A DNA stretch of 64,000 nucleotides, from positions 12,688-76,687 of the forward strand of contig JAICYB010000004.1 of NCBI GenBank assembly GCA_025934435.1, written 5' to 3'. This stretch comes from Actinomycetes bacterium (lineage in GTDB: Bacteria; Actinomycetota; JAICYB01). A program made the translations under genes and the position numbers. The notes beneath the pieces were generated by a model. The model made no database searches and was not told the origin of the DNA. It was given only the letters and a program-made list of their open reading frames with translations. How positions within the stretch are numbered: the stretch's first letter is position 1; the number at the start of each line of letters is the position of its first letter. Below, piece after piece: positions 22,617 to 32,737 of this stretch.

Positions 22617-25600
22617 ATGCGACCCTTCTTTCAGCGGCGCTTGTTCCGTCGTGTGTCGTTCCGTTCGAGGTCGGCGGCTAGTAAGCGATCGTCCCGGAAA
22701 CGCGAGCGCGTGCGTCTTTCAGCCGCCGCGCTGATCACGCTGTGTGCGCTTCTGGCAACGAGCGTCCAACCGGCGAACGCTTCGGTATCGCGCCCGAAGG
22801 CGCAGAAACCTCTCAAGAAGGTCGAGATTCTTCACTCGAGGCACCCACGCGCGATTCGGCCGAGGGTGTCGGGCGTGGCGCCGGTCACGTTCCATTCGGG
22901 CGATCGGAAGCGTCAGAAGCACCGTGCCGTGCGAGAACTGCGCTCGGACCGAACCGCGCTGTTGCGCGCCTTCGCCAACGACGACGGCACCATCACCATC
23001 CAGAACTATCTGACGCCGATCTTCCACAAGACGCACCGGGGCTGGGTGCCGATCCACAACGACATCGTGCGCCGTGGTCACCTGCTCGAAACGACAGGGA
23101 ACGCGTGGCGGACTGCGTTTGATGCGACGAAGTCCGGCATGAAGCTCAGCGCGCCGGAAGGAACGGTTCGCATCGTTCCCGTCGGGCCGAGGGGCAACGC
23201 CCGGCCGGATGTCATCAGCTCGCCGAACCGTCTGCGCTTCAGGAGTGCCCGCGGAACCTTGGCGCACACGGCGATCCCGCCTGCCGGCCTCGTCGGCTAC
23301 AGGGGGGTTTGGCGCGACGTCGACCTCCGCTACGAGGTCAGCGGGAACGGCTTGAAGGAGAACATCCAAGTCCGTTCGAGTAAGGCGCCCGCGGCATACG
23401 CCTTCGACGTCCTCGGCGCCATCTTGAAAGCAGACAAGCGTGGGGGCCTCGCTCTCGCCGGGCCACTCGGTCGGCGGTTCTACATACCTGCGTTGATGGT
23501 TCGGGGTGCGGACGGATCGCTGCTTACGTCGCCGTCGCGTGCGCGCTACGGGCTCACCGCTCTTCCTCACGGCAAAGGCACACGCGTTACGGTCACTCTC
23601 GATCAGTGGTGGCTGCGCTCACTTCCGAACAAGGCCTTCCCGCTCGACGTCGATCCGACCTTCGGCGACTGCCGTGGCACGGTCGGCGAATGCCCTGATA
23701 CGAACGCCATCACCCTCGGTAGCAACGGGTTCTCGAGCTCGAATACGACGGTGGACGTCGGACGCGACAGCTCCGGGAACATCTTTCGCGCGGCCATGTA
23801 CTTCCAGGACTACGAAACCTGGCTGAAGCAGGACTACCGCGTCTACGACTCACAGCTCGCGTTGAACGTCAGCCCGGGCGTCGGCACGCTCACCGTCGCC
23901 GATCAAGGATCGAACGATCCGACGTCACCGACATGGACCTACACGCAGCTTTCCAACGCGGGCGTTCCCATCGTCGGGACGTGGGATTCGACCATCCCCG
24001 GCAGCTCGACGGTGTTCGACGCGACCAATACCGTCGACCAGTGGTACGCCGGAAACCTGACCAAGCGCTGGTTCGGTATCACCGGGACGGAGACGGGGAG
24101 CTCGAACACCGAAGATTCGATGAACGGCTTCCTCACACTCGACGTGTACTTCCAACCGGCGGCGTCTCGGGTCACGAACCTTACGGCCAACCAGATCCTG
24201 TCGACGACGACACCGTCGCTTCAGGCCTTCGCCATACAGCCTGCGCCAAACACCGAATTCGCCAATGGCGGTTACGAGCCGATCTACGACTACGAGATCA
24301 CCACGTCGCCGGTCCCGGGCAAGAGCATCGTGGCGTCGTCGGGCGACCTCGGGTGTTCGAACAGCGATCCCGGGGTCTGGTCGTGTTCGCAGGACACCGA
24401 CGGCGGCGGACCGATCCCGACGTGGAACGTGCCGCCCGGCGCGCTGCAGGACGGCGTCACCTATTACGCCTGGGTCCTGACTGACTGGTCGAACAGGCCG
24501 TATGCGCTGTTCCACGACGGCGCGCCGGAAACCACGCCGCCCGCGTCGTGGGGCGTTCCCTTCAAGGTCGATCTCGGTCTCGGCAACGGCGGCAACTTCC
24601 CGACGGATGCCGTCGGCGCCGTTCCCGGAAGCGCGCAGACGCCCTCGGAGGGAGCACCGAACCCCGCGCTGCCGCCGTCGAAGGTCACGGTGAACCTCGT
24701 CGACGGCAACGCTGCCATCGCAGTCGACAACCCCAAGCTCGAGACCGTTTCCGGCGGAGCGCAGCTTCGCTTCACCTACAACTCGCTGGCGACGGCGCAG
24801 GAAGGCGTGCGCGGTCTGCAGGGCGACTACTACAACGACACCAACGGCAACGGCACGCTCGATCCGGGCACCGACGCCCTCGTGGCCGAGCGCACCGATC
24901 CGTCGGTGTGGTTCAACACGGGCTTCCCCGTGCAAGGCATCGTCGACGCGCAAAGCCCGGCGAAGGCCTTGGCCGAGTGGACCGGGTTTCTCACGCTGCC
25001 GAACTCGGATTCGTGGGAGATCGGCGACATCTCCTCCGACGGCGTGACGGCCACCGTGAACGGCGTCAGCCGGTTGAGCGACTTCGGCCCGCACGCCGCA
25101 CAGCCCAAGCCGACGTTCGGAACGAGCTTCGCGGCCACGCCGCAGATGCCCATCAAGATCGATTGGCACCACTCGAGCGGTCGTCCGTCGGTCATCGCCA
25201 TGTACGCCAAGGACATGGCCACCTGCGACGCGAACGGCAACAACTGCAAGGTCTACGCGCTCGACCCTTCTTGGCTCACGAGGGCACCGAAGACGCTTCC
25301 GGCCGGGTGGGCCTTCAACTCGACGGCCGCAACCGCGCAGTGGACGCGGCTTGTCGATCACGGCGACCTCGTCACCTTGTATGCCGACGACGGGACAGGC
25401 CATGTATTCACCCGCGCATCGGGTGGTCGCTACGTCGCGCCTCCAGAGACACCCCAAGACCTGCTGACGAACGTCGGGAACGGACAGTTCAACCTCGTGT
25501 CAGGCGGATACACCTACACCTTCGGTCCGACGGGCGACGCGATCTCCATCGTCACGACCAGCGACGATCTCCACCCGGCGGCCCCCCAGCACTCGTTCAC

Positions 25601-28600
25601 GGGCACGCCGCCGCTCCTACACACGATCACCGATCCGGTGCGATGCGCCGGCGCCGTCCCCTGCCCGTCGTCGAGCCAGGTGTCGCTCAACTACGGCGGC
25701 GATGCCGGCGCACCGGCGGAGTGCAACGGTGCGCCGAGCGGGATGCTCTGCTACATCTCGTACTTCGACGCCTCGGCCACGATCATCACCTACGACAGCT
25801 TCGGCAACCTCAGCCGCATCATCGAGCCGGGCAACGTCGTGTACGACTTCGCTTACGACTCGCTCGGGCGAGTGACGGATGTGCGCGACCCGTTGGCCTA
25901 CAACGCCATCCAGGCTGGTGTACGCGTGGACGATGCCACGGCCAAGACGCATATCACCTACGACTCGTCGTCGGCGACGGGGCGCGTGCAAACGATCACG
26001 CAGCCGGCGCCTGCCGCCGGCGGTGCGCGTCCCGAGCGTTTGTACTGTTACGGATCGGCCAAGGCGTACTCGGCCGGCGCGCCGTCGTGCAACACGGCGC
26101 AGGCGAACACGACATCGGTCGGCGTGTACGGCTTCAACCCGACCGTGGGCTACGCGTATCAAGAGCAGTACGACTCGCGGAACCGCAAGGTCGCTTCCTT
26201 CGACTCAGCCGGCCTGAAGACGAGCTACACGTGGGACGACAAGGACCGCCAGGTGACGACGGTCGATCCTGCCGGCCTCGAAACCTCGACCATCTACGAC
26301 GCGCTCGGTCACGCCGTGACGAACTACGGACCGGCGGCGAAGGCGTTGTTCAACGCCGACGGCACGCTTATCACACCGGGCAGCGCGCCGACGACGCAGA
26401 AAACCTACGACGGCGGCATCACGGGTCTCGCGGCGTCGTGGTATCCGACGACCGATCTCAGCGGATCAGCCGCCTACCACACGACGTCGAACCTGGCGGA
26501 CACGTGGTCGGGGGCGTGCAACTCGCCGTCGGCATGCAACGGCGGCGGCACGGTCATCCCAGCCTCCGGATTCTCGGGCGATCTCAGCGGGAAAGTGACG
26601 CTTCCTTCACCGGGCCGGATCAGCTTCGACGGCGACGGCGGCCGCGTGCTCGTCGACGGACATCTCGTTGTGGATCAGAAGGACGGACCTCTATCGGCGG
26701 CCGTGCGTGCCGATCATCCGCTCGACTTCTGGCGCCTGGCCGACGCGACGGGATCGACGCTCGCCGCCGACTCGAGCGGCGCCCTCGCCGGCACCTACAG
26801 TCCGTCCGGTACGACGCGAGGGGTTGGCGGGCCGGCAAGCGGCGACAACGCGACGGCCGCGACATTCGACGGAACGGCCGGCAACATCACCATCCCAGAC
26901 GATCCGACCCTTCGCTTCGACCGTCTCCAGCCGTTCTCCGTCGAGGCGTGGATCAAGACGTCGAGCGCCACGACGCAAGTCATCGCGTCCAAGCTTCCCA
27001 ACGCCGGCAGCGGCTGGGAGCTCGATGTGTCGAGCGGGAAGCTGCTGTTCCTGCTGACGAACTCCTATCCGTCCAACACCATCCAGCGCTCGGGATCCGT
27101 AACTCTCACCGACGGCAACTGGCATCACGTCGCGGTGACCTACGACGGATCATCGACGGCCGCCGGCGTGACGTTCTACGAGGACGGCGTAGCCGATCCG
27201 GCGCCGGTGACGAACGTCGACACCCTGACCTCGGACCCGCGGGGAACGTCGGGACTCAACATCGGGTCACGTCCGGCCGACGGCTTCTTCTTCAACGGGA
27301 CCATCGCCGACGTCGCCGTCTACAACCAGCAGGTGAGCGCCGCCCGCATCGCCGCGCACAAAGCCGCCGCCGCCTTACTGTCGAGCGCGGCGGCGAGCCC
27401 GATCATCTACAACTCGCCCTACCCCACCGCTGTGGACGCGAATTCACCGACGTCGTTCTGGCGTCTCGGCGAAGCATCGGGAACCACCGCGACAGATTCC
27501 AACGGTTCGAGCAACGGCATGTACACGGGGTCGGTGACCTTGAACCAGCCCGGACCGATACCTGGAGACCCGTCGACGTCGGCGATCTTCGGCGGCGGCA
27601 CCGGAACGGTGAGCGTTCCAGATTCGCCGGCGCTGCGTGTCAACCAGTCGCAGCCGTTCAGCGTCGAAGCGTGGGTGAAGACCACCACGTCGAGCCAGAT
27701 GGCCATCGCTTCGAAAATGCCGGGCACGGGCTCATTGCAGGGTTGGGAGTTCGGGCTCGCGTCGGGCAAGCCGTATCTCACGGTGATCAATACGGTCGCT
27801 ACGAACTGGATCGATGTCGCCGCTTCGACGAGCGTCGTGGACGGCCGCTGGCATCATCTGGTCGGAACCTACGACGGCAGCTCGAGAGCATCGGGCGTGC
27901 ATCTGTACATCGACGGCCACATCGACGGCGGTCCCGGCCTCATCTTCGGCGATTCGCTTTCGGCATCGTCGGCATCGTCGGTGCCGCTGTACATCGGTTC
28001 GCGGGCAGCGAACAGCCTGTGGTTCTTCGGGAACCTGGCCAACGTCGCCATGTATCCGAATGCGCTCGGCGCCGACGACGTCGCGCGTCATGCTGTAGCC
28101 GGTCAAGGTCCCGTGCCGCTCACCGTGCAGCAGGACGGCGCCGCCTCGTATTGGCGGCTTGGCGAGTCGCTCCCGCAGGTCAAGGCGCTCGATATGACGG
28201 GCGCCAACAACGCTACGTACAGCCCCCTCGGGTGCGGACAGACAACGGGCGGGTTGAACGGCGATGCGAACGGTGCCACCACCTTCGACGGCACGAACTG
28301 CAACGTAAGCGTCGGGGAGATGCCGAGCCTTCGGGTCGGGCGTACGCAGGCGGCGAGCATCGAGGCATGGGTCAAGACGACGGCGGCGGTAACGCAAGTG
28401 ATCGCAGCCAAGATGGCCAACACGTCTCCGTTCACCGGCTGGGACTTCGTGATGAATCCCAGTGGTCAGCTCTACTTCCAGCTCATCTCGAGCTGGACGG
28501 CAAGCGCCATCGAGGTCGACGGGACGAAGGTGCTGAAGGACGGTGCATGGCACCACGTCGCTGCGACCTATGACGGCAGCGGAGTCGCTGCCGGCGTCAA

Positions 28601-31600
28601 GCTCTATGCCGACGGTGTCGCCGATACGGTGACCATCTCGCACGACACGCTCGGCACGACGAACCCGACGAATTCCTCGAACCCGTTCACCATCGGGTCG
28701 CGCGCGACGGGTCTGAACTTCAACGGATCGATGTCCGACGTCGCCTTCTACGACCGCGCACTGTCGAGCGACCAGGTGGCGAACCACCGCAATGCCGGCA
28801 TCACCGCGCCACCGGCTCCGGTCACCGATCACCGCATCGACGTGCAGGACCAGCAGTTCGTCGCCGGCGGTCACCTCACGGTCACGTCGGCGGCAGCGAC
28901 GTTCGGTCCGAACTACGGGCTGCTCACCCAGACCACCGACCCCGACGGCAAGATCACGCAGACGCAGTACGCCGACGCGGTGAACGGCATCGACCCGAAG
29001 TTCGGCCTGCCCACGGCGACCATCCAGGACCCGAGCACGCTGAATCTCAAGACGTCGACCGCCTACGAGCCGCCGGGCGCGACGAGCTTCCTGCGGCGTG
29101 TATCGAAGACGCTTCCTGCCGGCAACCAGACGACGTATGCGAACTACGCGGGAAACGATCCGCCCATCGCCAACGTGTGCGGGGTCACGGCGTCCACGCT
29201 GCAAGCCGGGCTTCCCAAACAAGAGACCGATCCCGTTCCGGCCGTCGGTTCGGCGCGCGTCGAGCAGTACGTCTACGACTCGCTCGGCCGCGAGGCCGGA
29301 CACCGCATCGGCACGACAGCCACCATCTCGTCGGTCGGCTGGGACTGCACGACCTACGACGCCGCGGGTCGCATGGTGACGCAGTCGTGGCCGGCCTTCG
29401 GATCGCAGCCGTCACGCACCGCCACGTACACATACGGCGTCGGCTCCCCGACGCCGAATCCGCTCGTCAACTCGGTGACCGATACGACGTGGCCGGCGCA
29501 GTCCATCTCGACGACCGTCGACCTGCTCGGCCGGACCGTGAGCTACAGCGACATCTGGGGACAGACGACGACGACGACCTTCGACCAAGCGGGCCGGGTC
29601 ACCGACACCGCCGGACCAGTCGGGGCGCGCCACACCGACTACGACGGCGCCGGACGAGTCTCAGATCAGATGCTCGGCGCTCAGAAGGTCGCTGTGCCCG
29701 GCTACGACGCGCCGACCGGACGGATGACGAGCGTGTCCTACCCGACGGGGACCGGCAACGGCGGCAACGGCAGCAACCTCGCCATCGGATACGACGCCAA
29801 CGGCCGCCAGAATTCCTTGAGCGCCACGGGGCCGGGTTCAGCCCTCATCACCTCAGACAGCGACGTCTTCAGCGCTGGCGCGCGGGTGAGCTCGGAGACC
29901 ATCGACGGCAACTCCGGCAGTCCTTCTTCCTTCGGCTACGACGGCGCCGGCCGGCTCACGACGGCCACCGTCCCCGGCCACACCCTCACCTACAACTACG
30001 CCGCCACCGGCGGATGCGGTCCTGAAGCGGCGGCGGGAAACAACACGAACCGCACGAGCGTGGTCGACGGCGCGACGACCACGACGTACTGCTACGACAA
30101 CGCGGACCGTCTCACTTCGACCTCCGACGCCCGCTACACGACGCCGACCTACGACGATCATGGCAACACGTCTTCGATCGGCGACGAGACCATCACCTAC
30201 GACGCCGCCGACCGCCACCTGGCCACGACGACGACCGGCGGTGCCTTGCCGACCACGGTCAATTACCTCCGCGATCCCCTCGACCGCATCGCCGAGCGCG
30301 ACGCCACCGTGATCCCGCCGCTCGGCCGCCGCACGCCTGGGACCATCGCCACGACATCGACCACGGTGACGAGCATCGCTGTCCCGAAACCGGCAGGAAC
30401 CGTTTCCGGCGACTTCCTGCTCGCCGACATCTCCGAACGCGGGACGCCGACCATCACCCCGCCGTCGGGATGGACACTGCTCAACTCGACGGCGAGCGGC
30501 ACGACGGTGACCGATGCCGTCTACTACAAGGTCGCGGGATCGAGCGAGCCGGCGTCGTACACCTTCTCGTTTTCGACAGCTACCTCGGCCACCGGAGCGA
30601 TCATGGGCTACGTGGGCGTCGATACCACGAACCCCATCGACACTTCGGGTGTCGTGACGGACACCAACGTGACCTCGCACACCGCTCCCGCCGTGACCAC
30701 GACGAGCCCTGACGACATGCTGCTCGTCATCTTGGCCTCCGACGGCAACAGCACCGTCACCAAGGACGCGCAGACCACGCAGCAGTGGTTCCTCAAGAGC
30801 GCCGCGGCCAGCAACAACGTGGAGTCCGACGGCGCCGACCAGGTCGTCACCAAGACCGGCTCGACAGGTACGCGCAGCGTCACCACGGCCACGGCGCAGA
30901 GCTCGGTCGTGCGCTCCATCGCCTTGAAGTCGCGCCCGGTGGCGCCCATCGCCTTCCGCGACGTTGCCACGGCCACCACCGGAGCCTCGATCCTCACACC
31001 GCTCGTCGTGCCGAGACCGGCCAAGGCCCTGCCGGGCGATCTGCTCGTTGCCGACGTCTCCCTTGTCGGCGCACCGACCATCACCACGCCGCCGGGATGG
31101 ACGGCGTTGCCGCCCCAGGTCATCGCGGGCCTGCTCACCGACGAGATCTTCTACAAGGTGGCGACCTCCTCCGAGCCGACCTCGTACTCCTTCGCCTTCT
31201 CGGCGGCCACCTCGGCCACCGGCGCCATCACCGCCTACTCGGGCGTCGATCCGCTCAACCCCATCGACGTCTCAGCCGTGGCCACCGACGGCTCGACGAC
31301 GACGACGCACACGGCGCCGAGCGTCACGACGACCTCGCCCGCCGACACCGCGCTGTTCATCCTCGACGCAGCCGGTAACAGTGCCGTCACCCCGGACGCG
31401 CAGACGACGCAGCGCTGGAACCTGGCGACGACGGCAGCCACCAACGTGCAGAGCAACGGCGCCGACCAGCTGATCGCGGCCGCCGGCGCAACGGGCACAC
31501 GAACGATCAAGACGGCGACCGCGGCGCGCGGGATCATGCGCTCCATCGCCCTTCGGCCGCAGGCCGTGAGCCGCACACGCTACGGCTACGAGGGCCACGA

Positions 31601-32348
31601 CGACTCACCGTCACTCGAGATGGACGGCGCGGGCAGCATTATCGACCGCACGGTGTCGCTCGCCGGTGGCGTGGTCGTCACGCGCACCGTCGCCACGGCA
31701 ACCTCCACCGACACCTGGAGCTACCCGAACGTGCATGGAGACGTGGCTGCGACGGCGAACGGCAGCGGCGCCAAGGTTGGGTCGACACTCACCTACGATC
31801 CGTATGGTCAGCCGCTCGCGGGAAACGCGTCCGATACGTCGAGCAACTTCTCGTTCGGCTGGGAAGGATCGAAAGAGAAGCTGACGGAGCATCAAGACGA
31901 CATCGCGACCATCGAGATGGGAGCGCGTCAGTATGTCTCGGGTCTCGGGAGATTCCTCAGCGTTGATCCGGTTGAAGGTGGGTGTGCGAACGCGTACGTC
32001 TTTGCGTTCGGTGATCCTGTCAGCTATCCCGATCTCAATGGCTTGCGGTCAAAGCCGTGTAGCTCTAAGCACCACCACGGCTTGGGTTTCTATATAGGCG
32101 TTGCAGTTGTCGGCGGTTTTGTAGCAGGCGCGGCGGCAGCGGGCAGTGTCGCCGCCGGCGGTGCGGCAATTGCTACCGTTGCTAGCGCGGTTCTTGCGGG
32201 AAACGCTCCGCTCATCCCCGACGCGGTCTCCGACGTCGCCCGAGCAGTAGTCACTGCCGCGACCTTCCTCGGGGGCGCAGCGGGCGCGGTCGGAACGCAC
32301 AACGAGATTTGTAATGGTCAACGTCATGTGGAGGCGCCGCAGCCGTGA
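22617..32348 (+). CDS. secreted RHS/YD-repeat polymorphic toxin (WapA/teneurin-like), 3243 aa
   Basis: GGAGG RBS 7 nt upstream of the ATG. N-terminal signal-peptide-like segment (RKRERVRLSAAALITLCALLATSVQPANA). Two PA14-like domains (GLQGDYYNDTNGNG...; ASWYP...VLVDGHLVVD). Three LamG/ConA-like repeats (WRL..[AS]G....D..G...G.Y...Q.FSVEAW[IV]KT...WHH...TYDG). Numerous YD repeats (YDSLGR.., YDAAGR.., FGYDGAGRLT..). RHS terminal repeat (WSYPNVHGDVAATANGSGAKVGSTLTYDPYGQPL) and core (GARQYVSGLGRFLSVDPVEGG.NAYVFAFGDPVSYPDLNGL) followed by a short variable tip. Confidence 0.9.
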   Translation: MRPFFQRRLFRRVSFRSRSAASKRSSRKRERVRLSAAALITLCALLATSVQPANASVSRPKAQKPLKKVEILHSRHPRAIRPRVSGVAPVTFHSGDRKRQKHRAVRELRSDRTALLRAFANDDGTITIQNYLTPIFHKTHRGWVPIHNDIVRRGHLLETTGNAWRTAFDATKSGMKLSAPEGTVRIVPVGPRGNARPDVISSPNRLRFRSARGTLAHTAIPPAGLVGYRGVWRDVDLRYEVSGNGLKENIQVRSSKAPAAYAFDVLGAILKADKRGGLALAGPLGRRFYIPALMVRGADGSLLTSPSRARYGLTALPHGKGTRVTVTLDQWWLRSLPNKAFPLDVDPTFGDCRGTVGECPDTNAITLGSNGFSSSNTTVDVGRDSSGNIFRAAMYFQDYETWLKQDYRVYDSQLALNVSPGVGTLTVADQGSNDPTSPTWTYTQLSNAGVPIVGTWDSTIPGSSTVFDATNTVDQWYAGNLTKRWFGITGTETGSSNTEDSMNGFLTLDVYFQPAASRVTNLTANQILSTTTPSLQAFAIQPAPNTEFANGGYEPIYDYEITTSPVPGKSIVASSGDLGCSNSDPGVWSCSQDTDGGGPIPTWNVPPGALQDGVTYYAWVLTDWSNRPYALFHDGAPETTPPASWGVPFKVDLGLGNGGNFPTDAVGAVPGSAQTPSEGAPNPALPPSKVTVNLVDGNAAIAVDNPKLETVSGGAQLRFTYNSLATAQEGVRGLQGDYYNDTNGNGTLDPGTDALVAERTDPSVWFNTGFPVQGIVDAQSPAKALAEWTGFLTLPNSDSWEIGDISSDGVTATVNGVSRLSDFGPHAAQPKPTFGTSFAATPQMPIKIDWHHSSGRPSVIAMYAKDMATCDANGNNCKVYALDPSWLTRAPKTLPAGWAFNSTAATAQWTRLVDHGDLVTLYADDGTGHVFTRASGGRYVAPPETPQDLLTNVGNGQFNLVSGGYTYTFGPTGDAISIVTTSDDLHPAAPQHSFTGTPPLLHTITDPVRCAGAVPCPSSSQVSLNYGGDAGAPAECNGAPSGMLCYISYFDASATIITYDSFGNLSRIIEPGNVVYDFAYDSLGRVTDVRDPLAYNAIQAGVRVDDATAKTHITYDSSSATGRVQTITQPAPAAGGARPERLYCYGSAKAYSAGAPSCNTAQANTTSVGVYGFNPTVGYAYQEQYDSRNRKVASFDSAGLKTSYTWDDKDRQVTTVDPAGLETSTIYDALGHAVTNYGPAAKALFNADGTLITPGSAPTTQKTYDGGITGLAASWYPTTDLSGSAAYHTTSNLADTWSGACNSPSACNGGGTVIPASGFSGDLSGKVTLPSPGRISFDGDGGRVLVDGHLVVDQKDGPLSAAVRADHPLDFWRLADATGSTLAADSSGALAGTYSPSGTTRGVGGPASGDNATAATFDGTAGNITIPDDPTLRFDRLQPFSVEAWIKTSSATTQVIASKLPNAGSGWELDVSSGKLLFLLTNSYPSNTIQRSGSVTLTDGNWHHVAVTYDGSSTAAGVTFYEDGVADPAPVTNVDTLTSDPRGTSGLNIGSRPADGFFFNGTIADVAVYNQQVSAARIAAHKAAAALLSSAAASPIIYNSPYPTAVDANSPTSFWRLGEASGTTATDSNGSSNGMYTGSVTLNQPGPIPGDPSTSAIFGGGTGTVSVPDSPALRVNQSQPFSVEAWVKTTTSSQMAIASKMPGTGSLQGWEFGLASGKPYLTVINTVATNWIDVAASTSVVDGRWHHLVGTYDGSSRASGVHLYIDGHIDGGPGLIFGDSLSASSASSVPLYIGSRAANSLWFFGNLANVAMYPNALGADDVARHAVAGQGPVPLTVQQDGAASYWRLGESLPQVKALDMTGANNATYSPLGCGQTTGGLNGDANGATTFDGTNCNVSVGEMPSLRVGRTQAASIEAWVKTTAAVTQVIAAKMANTSPFTGWDFVMNPSGQLYFQLISSWTASAIEVDGTKVLKDGAWHHVAATYDGSGVAAGVKLYADGVADTVTISHDTLGTTNPTNSSNPFTIGSRATGLNFNGSMSDVAFYDRALSSDQVANHRNAGITAPPAPVTDHRIDVQDQQFVAGGHLTVTSAAATFGPNYGLLTQTTDPDGKITQTQYADAVNGIDPKFGLPTATIQDPSTLNLKTSTAYEPPGATSFLRRVSKTLPAGNQTTYANYAGNDPPIANVCGVTASTLQAGLPKQETDPVPAVGSARVEQYVYDSLGREAGHRIGTTATISSVGWDCTTYDAAGRMVTQSWPAFGSQPSRTATYTYGVGSPTPNPLVNSVTDTTWPAQSISTTVDLLGRTVSYSDIWGQTTTTTFDQAGRVTDTAGPVGARHTDYDGAGRVSDQMLGAQKVAVPGYDAPTGRMTSVSYPTGTGNGGNGSNLAIGYDANGRQNSLSATGPGSALITSDSDVFSAGARVSSETIDGNSGSPSSFGYDGAGRLTTATVPGHTLTYNYAATGGCGPEAAAGNNTNRTSVVDGATTTTYCYDNADRLTSTSDARYTTPTYDDHGNTSSIGDETITYDAADRHLATTTTGGALPTTVNYLRDPLDRIAERDATVIPPLGRRTPGTIATTSTTVTSIAVPKPAGTVSGDFLLADISERGTPTITPPSGWTLLNSTASGTTVTDAVYYKVAGSSEPASYTFSFSTATSATGAIMGYVGVDTTNPIDTSGVVTDTNVTSHTAPAVTTTSPDDMLLVILASDGNSTVTKDAQTTQQWFLKSAAASNNVESDGADQVVTKTGSTGTRSVTTATAQSSVVRSIALKSRPVAPIAFRDVATATTGASILTPLVVPRPAKALPGDLLVADVSLVGAPTITTPPGWTALPPQVIAGLLTDEIFYKVATSSEPTSYSFAFSAATSATGAITAYSGVDPLNPIDVSAVATDGSTTTTHTAPSVTTTSPADTALFILDAAGNSAVTPDAQTTQRWNLATTAATNVQSNGADQLIAAAGATGTRTIKTATAARGIMRSIALRPQAVSRTRYGYEGHDDSPSLEMDGAGSIIDRTVSLAGGVVVTRTVATATSTDTWSYPNVHGDVAATANGSGAKVGSTLTYDPYGQPLAGNASDTSSNFSFGWEGSKEKLTEHQDDIATIEMGARQYVSGLGRFLSVDPVEGGCANAYVFAFGDPVSYPDLNGLRSKPCSSKHHHGLGFYIGVAVVGGFVAGAAAAGSVAAGGAAIATVASAVLAGNAPLIPDAVSDVARAVVTAATFLGGAAGAVGTHNEICNGQRHVEAPQP

Positions 32349-32737
32349 GCTGGTACTTGCGCAACAGAGTAGCAATCCATCTCGGCACCGTCCTTGTCGC
32401 AGGTTTGAATCTGCTCTTGGCGCTCCATCTCCGCATTTACGGAGGCATCCTTGCTCTGGATGTCGCCTTTGTCGTGTTCGGATTGATAGCCGGACCGATC
32501 CTTGGGCGAGTTCTCGTCCGGACGGAGAATCGACCTTCCCGACCCCGAACGCGACGGGCGTCCCTCGTGAGGTGGGTCATATTCGGCGTAGTTGCCGGAG
32601 GAACGATCGCTATCAGCATTGCGATCATTGTTTCCAACGTAGGTTGGCTACCTTTCGCCCTGATCTTCGGTCCTTTCGCAACTGCGATGACCTTCTTCCT
32701 CCTTAAACGCTGGCACGCTCGCTCGTCGAGGTCATGA
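32345..32737 (+). CDS. putative immunity protein (polytopic membrane protein) for the RHS C-terminal toxin
   Basis: GTG start overlapping the RHS stop (GTGA); 130 aa with 4 hydrophobic helices; position and coupling typical of cognate immunity genes. Confidence 0.5.
   Translation: MSWYLRNRVAIHLGTVLVAGLNLLLALHLRIYGGILALDVAFVVFGLIAGPILGRVLVRTENRPSRPRTRRASLVRWVIFGVVAGGTIAISIAIIVSNVGWLPFALIFGPFATAMTFFLLKRWHARSSRS

Follow-up and report, generated by a model that had tools for sequence, protein, structure and literature searches.

A Tandem Domain Pair within an Rhs-Family Protein

Rhs cocoons are understood mainly as containers and, to our knowledge, the way in which Rhs toxins secreted via Sec by Gram-positive-type bacteria find a target cell and hold on to it is poorly known. 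A gene for an Rhs/YD-repeat polymorphic toxin of an Actinomycetes bacterium (positions 22617..32348, forward strand, 3243 amino acids) raises this question in a particular form: what are two similar, consecutive stretches close to the end of its shell, and why would a toxin container carry them? The gene lies in a 64,000-nt segment of contig JAICYB010000004.1 (assembly GCA_025934435.1; 66% G+C), which is referred to below as the window and whose positions are used as coordinates throughout. An initial annotation, made from the sequence alone, had described the two stretches as internal duplicates of unknown type, at about 30340-30930 and about 30935-31560, that lack YD periodicity.

The two stretches are indeed duplicates of each other. 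A BLASTP comparison of amino acids (aa) 2569-2773 with aa 2773-2985 gave 111 identities in 205 positions (54%), 69% positives and 2 gaps (E 2e-67). When the six-frame translation of the window was searched with a hidden Markov model (HMM) of the domain, exactly two copies were retrieved (domain E 4e-62 and 6e-54, profile positions 2-186). Unit 1, as delimited by BLASTP, the HMM (E 4e-62) and AlphaFold2, is an unnamed all-beta domain comprising aa 2573-2773 (30333..30935, forward strand; HMM core 30366-30926). Unit 2, delimited by BLASTP, the HMM and a model of the pair, comprises aa 2774-2982 (30936..31562, forward strand; HMM core 30993-31553). The coordinates of the initial annotation lie within a few codons of these refined boundaries, and both of its stretches share the reading frame of the 3243-aa gene.

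At the DNA level, the units are only 63.9% identical across 621 aligned nt. It follows that the duplication is old, and a recent duplication or an assembly artefact is ruled out. Since the region is rich in Thr, Ser and Ala, a low-complexity or compositional artefact was also considered; it is ruled out by the confident structural models and by the thousands of profile matches below 1e-30 that are described in the following sections. Chance or artefact as the source of the unit pair is thus excluded.

Sequence Conservation and Predicted Fold of the Units

Neither unit could be assigned to a known family. Searches of Pfam-A returned no family for either unit, even at E<=10, and no NCBIfam family covers aa 2573-2982; YD periodicity is absent from the units as well. 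Searches of PDB sequences with the units, by phmmer and with a profile, returned only noise. The same protein contains three LamG_3 domains, but an hhalign comparison of the units' family with an alignment of LamG_3 copies gave a probability of 0.05%, i.e., no relation at the level of sequence profiles. In a Foldseek search of 350,542 PDB chains, no match was obtained at E<=0.001, the best template modelling score (TM-score) being 0.26 for a single unit and 0.16 for the pair. No known shell segment and no common adhesin domain was matched with confidence in either the profile or the structure searches, and no description of the inserted domain was found in the literature on Rhs, PA14 and actinobacterial architectures. 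The designation "unknown type" therefore holds.

The predicted fold is, nevertheless, well defined. AlphaFold2 modelled unit 1 from a 27-sequence alignment with a predicted local distance difference test (pLDDT) score of 96.5 and a predicted TM-score (pTM) of 0.91, as eleven strands with no helix. In the model of the pair (pLDDT 93.6, pTM 0.77), segments initially regarded as linkers contribute one more strand at the N-terminus of each unit, which brings the number of strands to 12 per unit. According to these confident models, the units are compact all-beta modules of the beta-sandwich type, ca. 190 aa long.

Alignment of 356 copies of the family revealed conserved loop residues P32-G34-W35-T36, S59-E60-P61, G83-V84-D85...P89-I90-D91, P133/G135 and G164-T166-G167. 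Conservation is about 90% for D15 and E60 and about 63-65% for S59, D85 and D91. The conserved residues fall in every second loop (L2, L4, L6, L8 and L10), and both window units keep all of them. Both units also match the family profile over its full length and retain P8, D15, G34-W35-T36, S59-E60-P61, Y64, P89 and G164/G167. The motif extracted from the two units in the initial annotation (P.G..GD, GWT, SEP.SY, GVD..NPID, AP.VTT, G.TGT) coincides with the positions conserved across the family.

The Insertion Site and the History of the Pair

To locate the site at which the pair interrupts the protein, the C-terminal shell with the insert deleted was used as a search query, and the sequences flanking the insert were located in the 120 best matches; both flanks were present in 117 of them. 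The left flank, "...VNYLRDPLDRIAERDATVIPPLGRR" (30249..30332, forward strand), is the last YD-repeat shell strand ahead of the insert and aligns to "Y.RD..DRI..R" of the 117 homologues. The right flank, the shell strand "AVSRTRYGYEGHDDSPSLEMDGAGSIIDRTVSLAGGVV" (31563..31676, forward strand), follows the left flank after a turn of 4-11 aa in relatives that have no insert. Thus, in 111 of the 117 close homologues, 4-11 residues link "Y.RD..DRI..R" to "RYGY.G.GD.PD..." and form an ordinary YD hairpin turn; its place is taken by 410 residues in the window protein. The initial annotation had placed the units between the YD shell and the RHS terminal repeat and had called this position unusual. The position is unusual, as the 111 insert-free homologues show, but the pair does not separate the shell from the terminal repeat: it is located in a hairpin turn within the shell sequence, 78 aa upstream of the TIGR03696 core domain. 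The assignment of the site to a hairpin comes from the alignment with insert-free homologues; in a sequence comparison with solved Rhs shells, only the core (31794..32045) aligned, to that of mosquito SGS1 (PDB 8fjp; E 0.004).

The same turn is occupied in several relatives. Four of them (P0190, P0212, P0291 and P0267) carry a single copy of the domain there, and P0070 carries two, as the window protein does. Two copies were also found at other positions: one hairpin later in P0076, in a mid-shell YD turn in P0079 and N-terminal to the shell in P0068. The C-terminal tips of the window protein, P0070 and P0076 are all different, i.e., the pair does recur in Rhs proteins with different tips. Judging from these alignments, the hairpin turn is an insertion hotspot, with gain, loss, swap and duplication of inserts among close relatives.

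Comparison of the copies suggests how the pairs arose. Identity between units within one protein is 53-80%, versus at most 59% between proteins, and both window units share 51-55% identity with the one copy in P0190. The higher identity within proteins than between them implies that pairs arose repeatedly by duplication in place. The simplest history compatible with the sequences would be that a single inserted copy was duplicated in place, and that this happened separately in several lineages; the similarity within proteins could alternatively reflect concerted evolution. Repeated duplication would be expected if two copies bind better than one.

In P0278, an unrelated insert of 148 aa (aa ~307-454), starting "TESSLDRLQLLAAAEQ...", was found in the same turn. 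No Pfam family matched this insert.

Distribution of the Domain in Bacteria and Phages

The family profile was searched against 1.84 billion representative sequences (clusters at 50% identity). The number of clusters retrieved was 43,822 at E<=1e-3 and fell to 24,758 at E<=1e-10 and to 3,808 at E<=1e-30. The 150 best matches contain 2-6 copies per protein, mostly arranged head to tail, and five of the 150 have an Rhs core. In 27 large members, the domain is accompanied by Big_9, cadherin-like, fn3, LamG_3, CBM_4_9, purple acid phosphatase, peptidases and other domains of extracellular type. When genomes were scanned with a single narrow peptide pattern, matches already came from Actinomycetota, Chloroflexota, Myxococcota, Planctomycetota, Verrucomicrobiota, Bacteroidota, Proteobacteria and Saccharimonadales.

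The domain is also encoded by phages. The proteins matched in a tblastn search of GenBank phages were Rhodococcus phage minor tail proteins, a "purple acid phosphatase" of a Streptomyces phage and proteins of Gordonia and Mycobacterium phages. In Rhodococcus phage Jflix2, two tandem copies (aa 548-920) are present in gp21 (L001:3850-7845), a 1331-aa minor tail protein whose gene adjoins the tape measure gene and in which no Pfam family was matched over the entire 1331 aa. Two PHROG families match the domain, 3329 (unknown function) and 13624 (labelled "hydrolase"). In phage Tomas gp123, a 616-aa "purple acid phosphatase", the domain is the N-terminal part (aa 1-183); the "hydrolase" label of PHROG 13624 belongs to the metallophosphatase half of such proteins. 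A stand-alone member of 225 aa is encoded among the structural genes of a 41-kb phage contig. Foldseek comparison with predicted viral structures (BFVD) gave 46 matches at E<=1e-3, with TM-scores of up to 0.87; minor tail proteins of mycobacteriophages account for two weaker matches (E about 2-4e-3).

A further arrangement was observed in Myxococcus xanthus AM003, where a 998-aa putative lipoprotein (L050:1456-4452) contains three tandem copies (aa 81-709). Each copy has an additional pair of Cys residues, and the part of the protein C-terminal to the copies carries no annotation. Similar genes are present in many Myxococcus and Corallococcus genomes.

Possible Function of the Pair

We consider it reasonably probable that the pair consists of externally displayed modules that bind a ligand on a cell surface. 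What the sequences show is that a module of a widespread, unnamed extracellular family was inserted into one dispensable YD hairpin turn of the cocoon and was duplicated. The pair would most likely be located on the outer face of the Rhs shell and would act there as a bivalent ligand-binding, or receptor-recognition, device, the most probable ligand being a glycopolymer of the cell envelope or some other surface structure. The pair, the PA14-like region, which scores below the cutoff, and the three LamG_3 domains may jointly hold the toxin container against a cell, and the hydrophobic C-terminal tip would be released after the cell has been held.

A position outside the shell is favoured because most relatives close the shell without the insert, and because a folded domain of ca. 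41 kDa together with the cargo is unlikely to fit into a cocoon of ca. 1000 shell residues, judging from published Rhs structures. The even number of strands (12) would place both termini of a unit at the same end, as insertion into a hairpin requires. Since the conserved residues are in alternate loops, they should lie at the end opposite the termini and distal to the shell, which is the geometry expected of a ligand-binding tip. The loops with W35, T36, E60, D85, D91 and G164-G167 would form this binding end, pointing away from the shell. The independent duplications, taken together with the tandem arrays in other proteins, suggest selection for multivalency. Multivalency is typical of low-affinity glycan binders. 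The occurrence of the domain in phage tails and beside extracellular companions would fit glycan binding, the functional class of carbohydrate-binding modules (CBMs).

Several points weigh against this assignment. No member of the family has a known ligand or a functional name, the names being "hypothetical" apart from a few automatic "cell wall anchor protein" labels. The Foldseek search of the PDB found no solved CBM that resembles the domain. That the pair lies outside the shell, and that the conserved loops gather at one end of a unit, is deduced from strand counting and steric reasoning and not from a three-dimensional model of the whole shell. In addition, the conserved acidic residues D15, E60, D85 and D91 would equally suit a catalytic or metal site.

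The last point, together with the conservation of S59, leaves room for the units being enzymes that degrade an envelope polymer, e.g., as a glycanase or an esterase, and thereby open a path for the toxin. Depolymerases are common in phage tail proteins, where the domain is found, and one matching PHROG family (13624) bears the name of a hydrolase, but, as indicated above, that name belongs to the metallophosphatase half of proteins such as Tomas gp123. Moreover, tandem arrays of up to 6 copies are typical of binding modules rather than of catalytic domains, separate catalytic domains are usually present in the same proteins, and no enzyme fold was matched in the Foldseek search of the PDB. Catalysis by the units appears quite unlikely to us. 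Binding without target recognition has to be considered as well: the modules could attach to the envelope of the producer itself and keep the secreted Rhs container on it in the manner of a wall anchor. Apart from its predicted Sec signal peptide, no anchor can be recognised in the window protein, NCBI gives the label "cell wall anchor protein" to a few members from myxobacteria, and the Myxococcus member is a putative lipoprotein with three copies. However, those labels are automatic, the presence of the domain in phage minor tail proteins points to recognition of the surface of another cell, and an insert that is missing in most close relatives can hardly be a general anchoring solution for this Rhs lineage. 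We therefore regard attachment to the producer as unlikely.

A purely structural role, in which the pair would plug the container from inside, cap it or chaperone its cargo, would be in line with the hydrophobic character of that cargo and with the location of the pair towards the C-terminal end of the shell, from where 78 aa lead to the core domain. The facts that 111 of the 117 close relatives close their shell without the pair, that the same domain occurs in many non-Rhs proteins and at other positions of the shell, and that the pair and the cargo would probably exceed the space inside the cocoon make this role highly improbable. Binding of a cell-surface ligand by externally displayed modules thus remains the function that we favour.

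Comparison with Known Systems

The closest parallel to the proposed arrangement is SGS1 of mosquitoes. In the cryo-electron microscopy structure of this protein, a CBM and a lectin domain, both encoded within the Rhs/YD sequence, lie side by side on the exterior of the shell, the cocoon stores transmembrane helices inside, and cooperative binding by the two adjacent domains was proposed (PMC9935623). The window protein shares with SGS1 beta-sandwich domains inserted in the YD sequence, two of them adjacent, a hydrophobic or transmembrane cargo and an RHS core that can be aligned. Unlike in SGS1, the insert is a true tandem duplicate, is located in a different, late hairpin and is found in an actinobacterium-like bacterium rather than an insect. 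The inserted domains of the two proteins are also unrelated in sequence, and the window models had no PDB match at E<=0.001 in a search that included entries of the 8fjp era. Given its hydrophobic tip, the window protein resembles a bacterial version of SGS1 in which another module has been inserted.

Receptor domains added to a YD shell are also known from TcB, with its beta-propeller, and from teneurins, with NHL and other domains (PMC9935623; see also PMC5851990); the principle is the same, while the folds, positions and partners differ. With the Gram-positive Sec-dependent toxins of the Rhs/WapA type, the window protein has in common the signal peptide, the YD shell, TIGR03696, the variable tip and a small downstream open reading frame (ORF), to which it adds the weak PA14-like match, the three LamG_3 domains and the spliced pair, the latter missing in most of its closest relatives. 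Actinophage minor tail proteins such as Jflix2 gp21 and the two PHROG families contain the same domain, in tandem in gp21, with matching predicted folds. There, the domain, likewise uncharacterised, is part of a tail protein or stands alone (~220 aa), whereas in the window it is grafted into a toxin container. CBMs and LamG-type lectins resemble the units in being all-beta, ca. 190 aa long, extracellular and arranged in tandem beside enzymes or adhesins, with conserved aromatic and acidic residues in loops; the absence of a profile relation to LamG_3, of a Pfam CBM match and of a Foldseek match to a solved CBM sets them apart.

That Rhs shells can be decorated with inserted receptor domains is, then, already known from SGS1, teneurins and TcB. 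What is new is that the inserted module belongs to a very large family, common to phage tails and toxins, for which Pfam has no entry, names are uninformative and no solved relative was detected, that one YD turn is a hotspot of its gain, loss and duplication among close relatives, and that the same module was captured at other YD turns. A broader proposal, which we put forward only tentatively, is that the units represent a very large unclassified family of surface-recognition domains with a fold lacking solved relatives, which phages may use in their tail proteins for host recognition and which Rhs toxins may have captured repeatedly, by insertion into YD hairpin turns, and duplicated in place, so that toxin containers would be retargeted by modular swap, much as phage host range is.

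A permissive hairpin turn with turnover of receptor-like modules offers a natural experiment on the determinants of targeting. The domain is common (tens of thousands of clusters, many phyla, phages) and is predicted excellently, which makes it an easy as well as useful target for structure determination and ligand screening, and its characterisation would help to annotate phage receptor-binding proteins. We expect the finding to be useful and testable, though of little surprise to specialists.

The Host Protein and Its Neighbourhood

Apart from the pair, the window protein is an ordinary Rhs protein and belongs to the Rhs/YD polymorphic toxins of the Sec type. The repeats that characterise such toxins were detected in the 3243-aa ORF with both Pfam (RHS_repeat, E 5e-12, 46.3 bits versus a cutoff of 22) and NCBIfam (YD_repeat_2x, 33.3 bits, cutoff 15.8). 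The RHS repeat-associated core domain (NCBIfam TIGR03696, Rhs_assc_core, 39.8 bits, cutoff 32.5) comprises aa 3060-3143 (31794..32045, forward strand); its C-terminal end, ...DPVSYPDLNGL, is a motif of the D-x-x-G-L type ahead of the tip. Pfam also identified three Laminin_G_3 matches (E 2e-64) and a weak PA14 match under its cutoff. The three LamG_3 (concanavalin-like) domains, with boundaries set by jackhmmer, occupy aa 1408-2060 (26838..28796, forward strand) and constitute a second accessory block, flanked by YD-repeat stretches. In the relative P0070, FG-GAP repeats and PA14 are present in place of the LamG_3 trio; thus, this Rhs lineage varies in its accessory domains at more than one place.

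Two starts can be considered for the gene. If translation starts at the ATG at 22617, a basic stretch comes first and leads into a hydrophobic, signal-like segment that ends in ...PANA, i.e., a predicted Sec-type signal peptide at aa ~30-56. In the database entry of the protein (P0053, 3157 aa), the start is placed 86 codons further on, at a GTG at nt 22875 (residue 87), and the signal-like segment is missing. The longer reading looks more plausible, as it fits a secreted Rhs protein better.

The variable C-terminal tip, the presumed cargo toxin, comprises the last 100 residues (aa 3144-3243; 32046..32345, forward strand), as defined by sequence and hydropathy. Because the tip is Gly/Ala-rich and strongly hydrophobic, with runs that resemble glycine zippers, it suggests a small membrane-inserting toxin rather than an enzyme. 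The tip of P0076 is a different one, yet similarly hydrophobic. A 130-aa ORF with a GTG start (32345..32737, forward strand) overlaps the stop codon of the Rhs gene by 4 nt; it encodes four hydrophobic segments, has no Pfam match and is a candidate for an immunity protein. The hydrophobic tip and the overlapping ORF would fit a toxin tip followed by a gene for a membrane immunity protein.

The other genes neighbouring the Rhs gene are ordinary metabolic genes, and the nearest relatives of the protein come from metagenome-assembled genomes of Acidimicrobiales and other Actinomycetota. Downstream of P0070, a gene for a 149-aa DUF6869 protein (L002:13773-14222) overlaps the end of the Rhs gene; it is another putative immunity gene, paired with the different tip of P0070.

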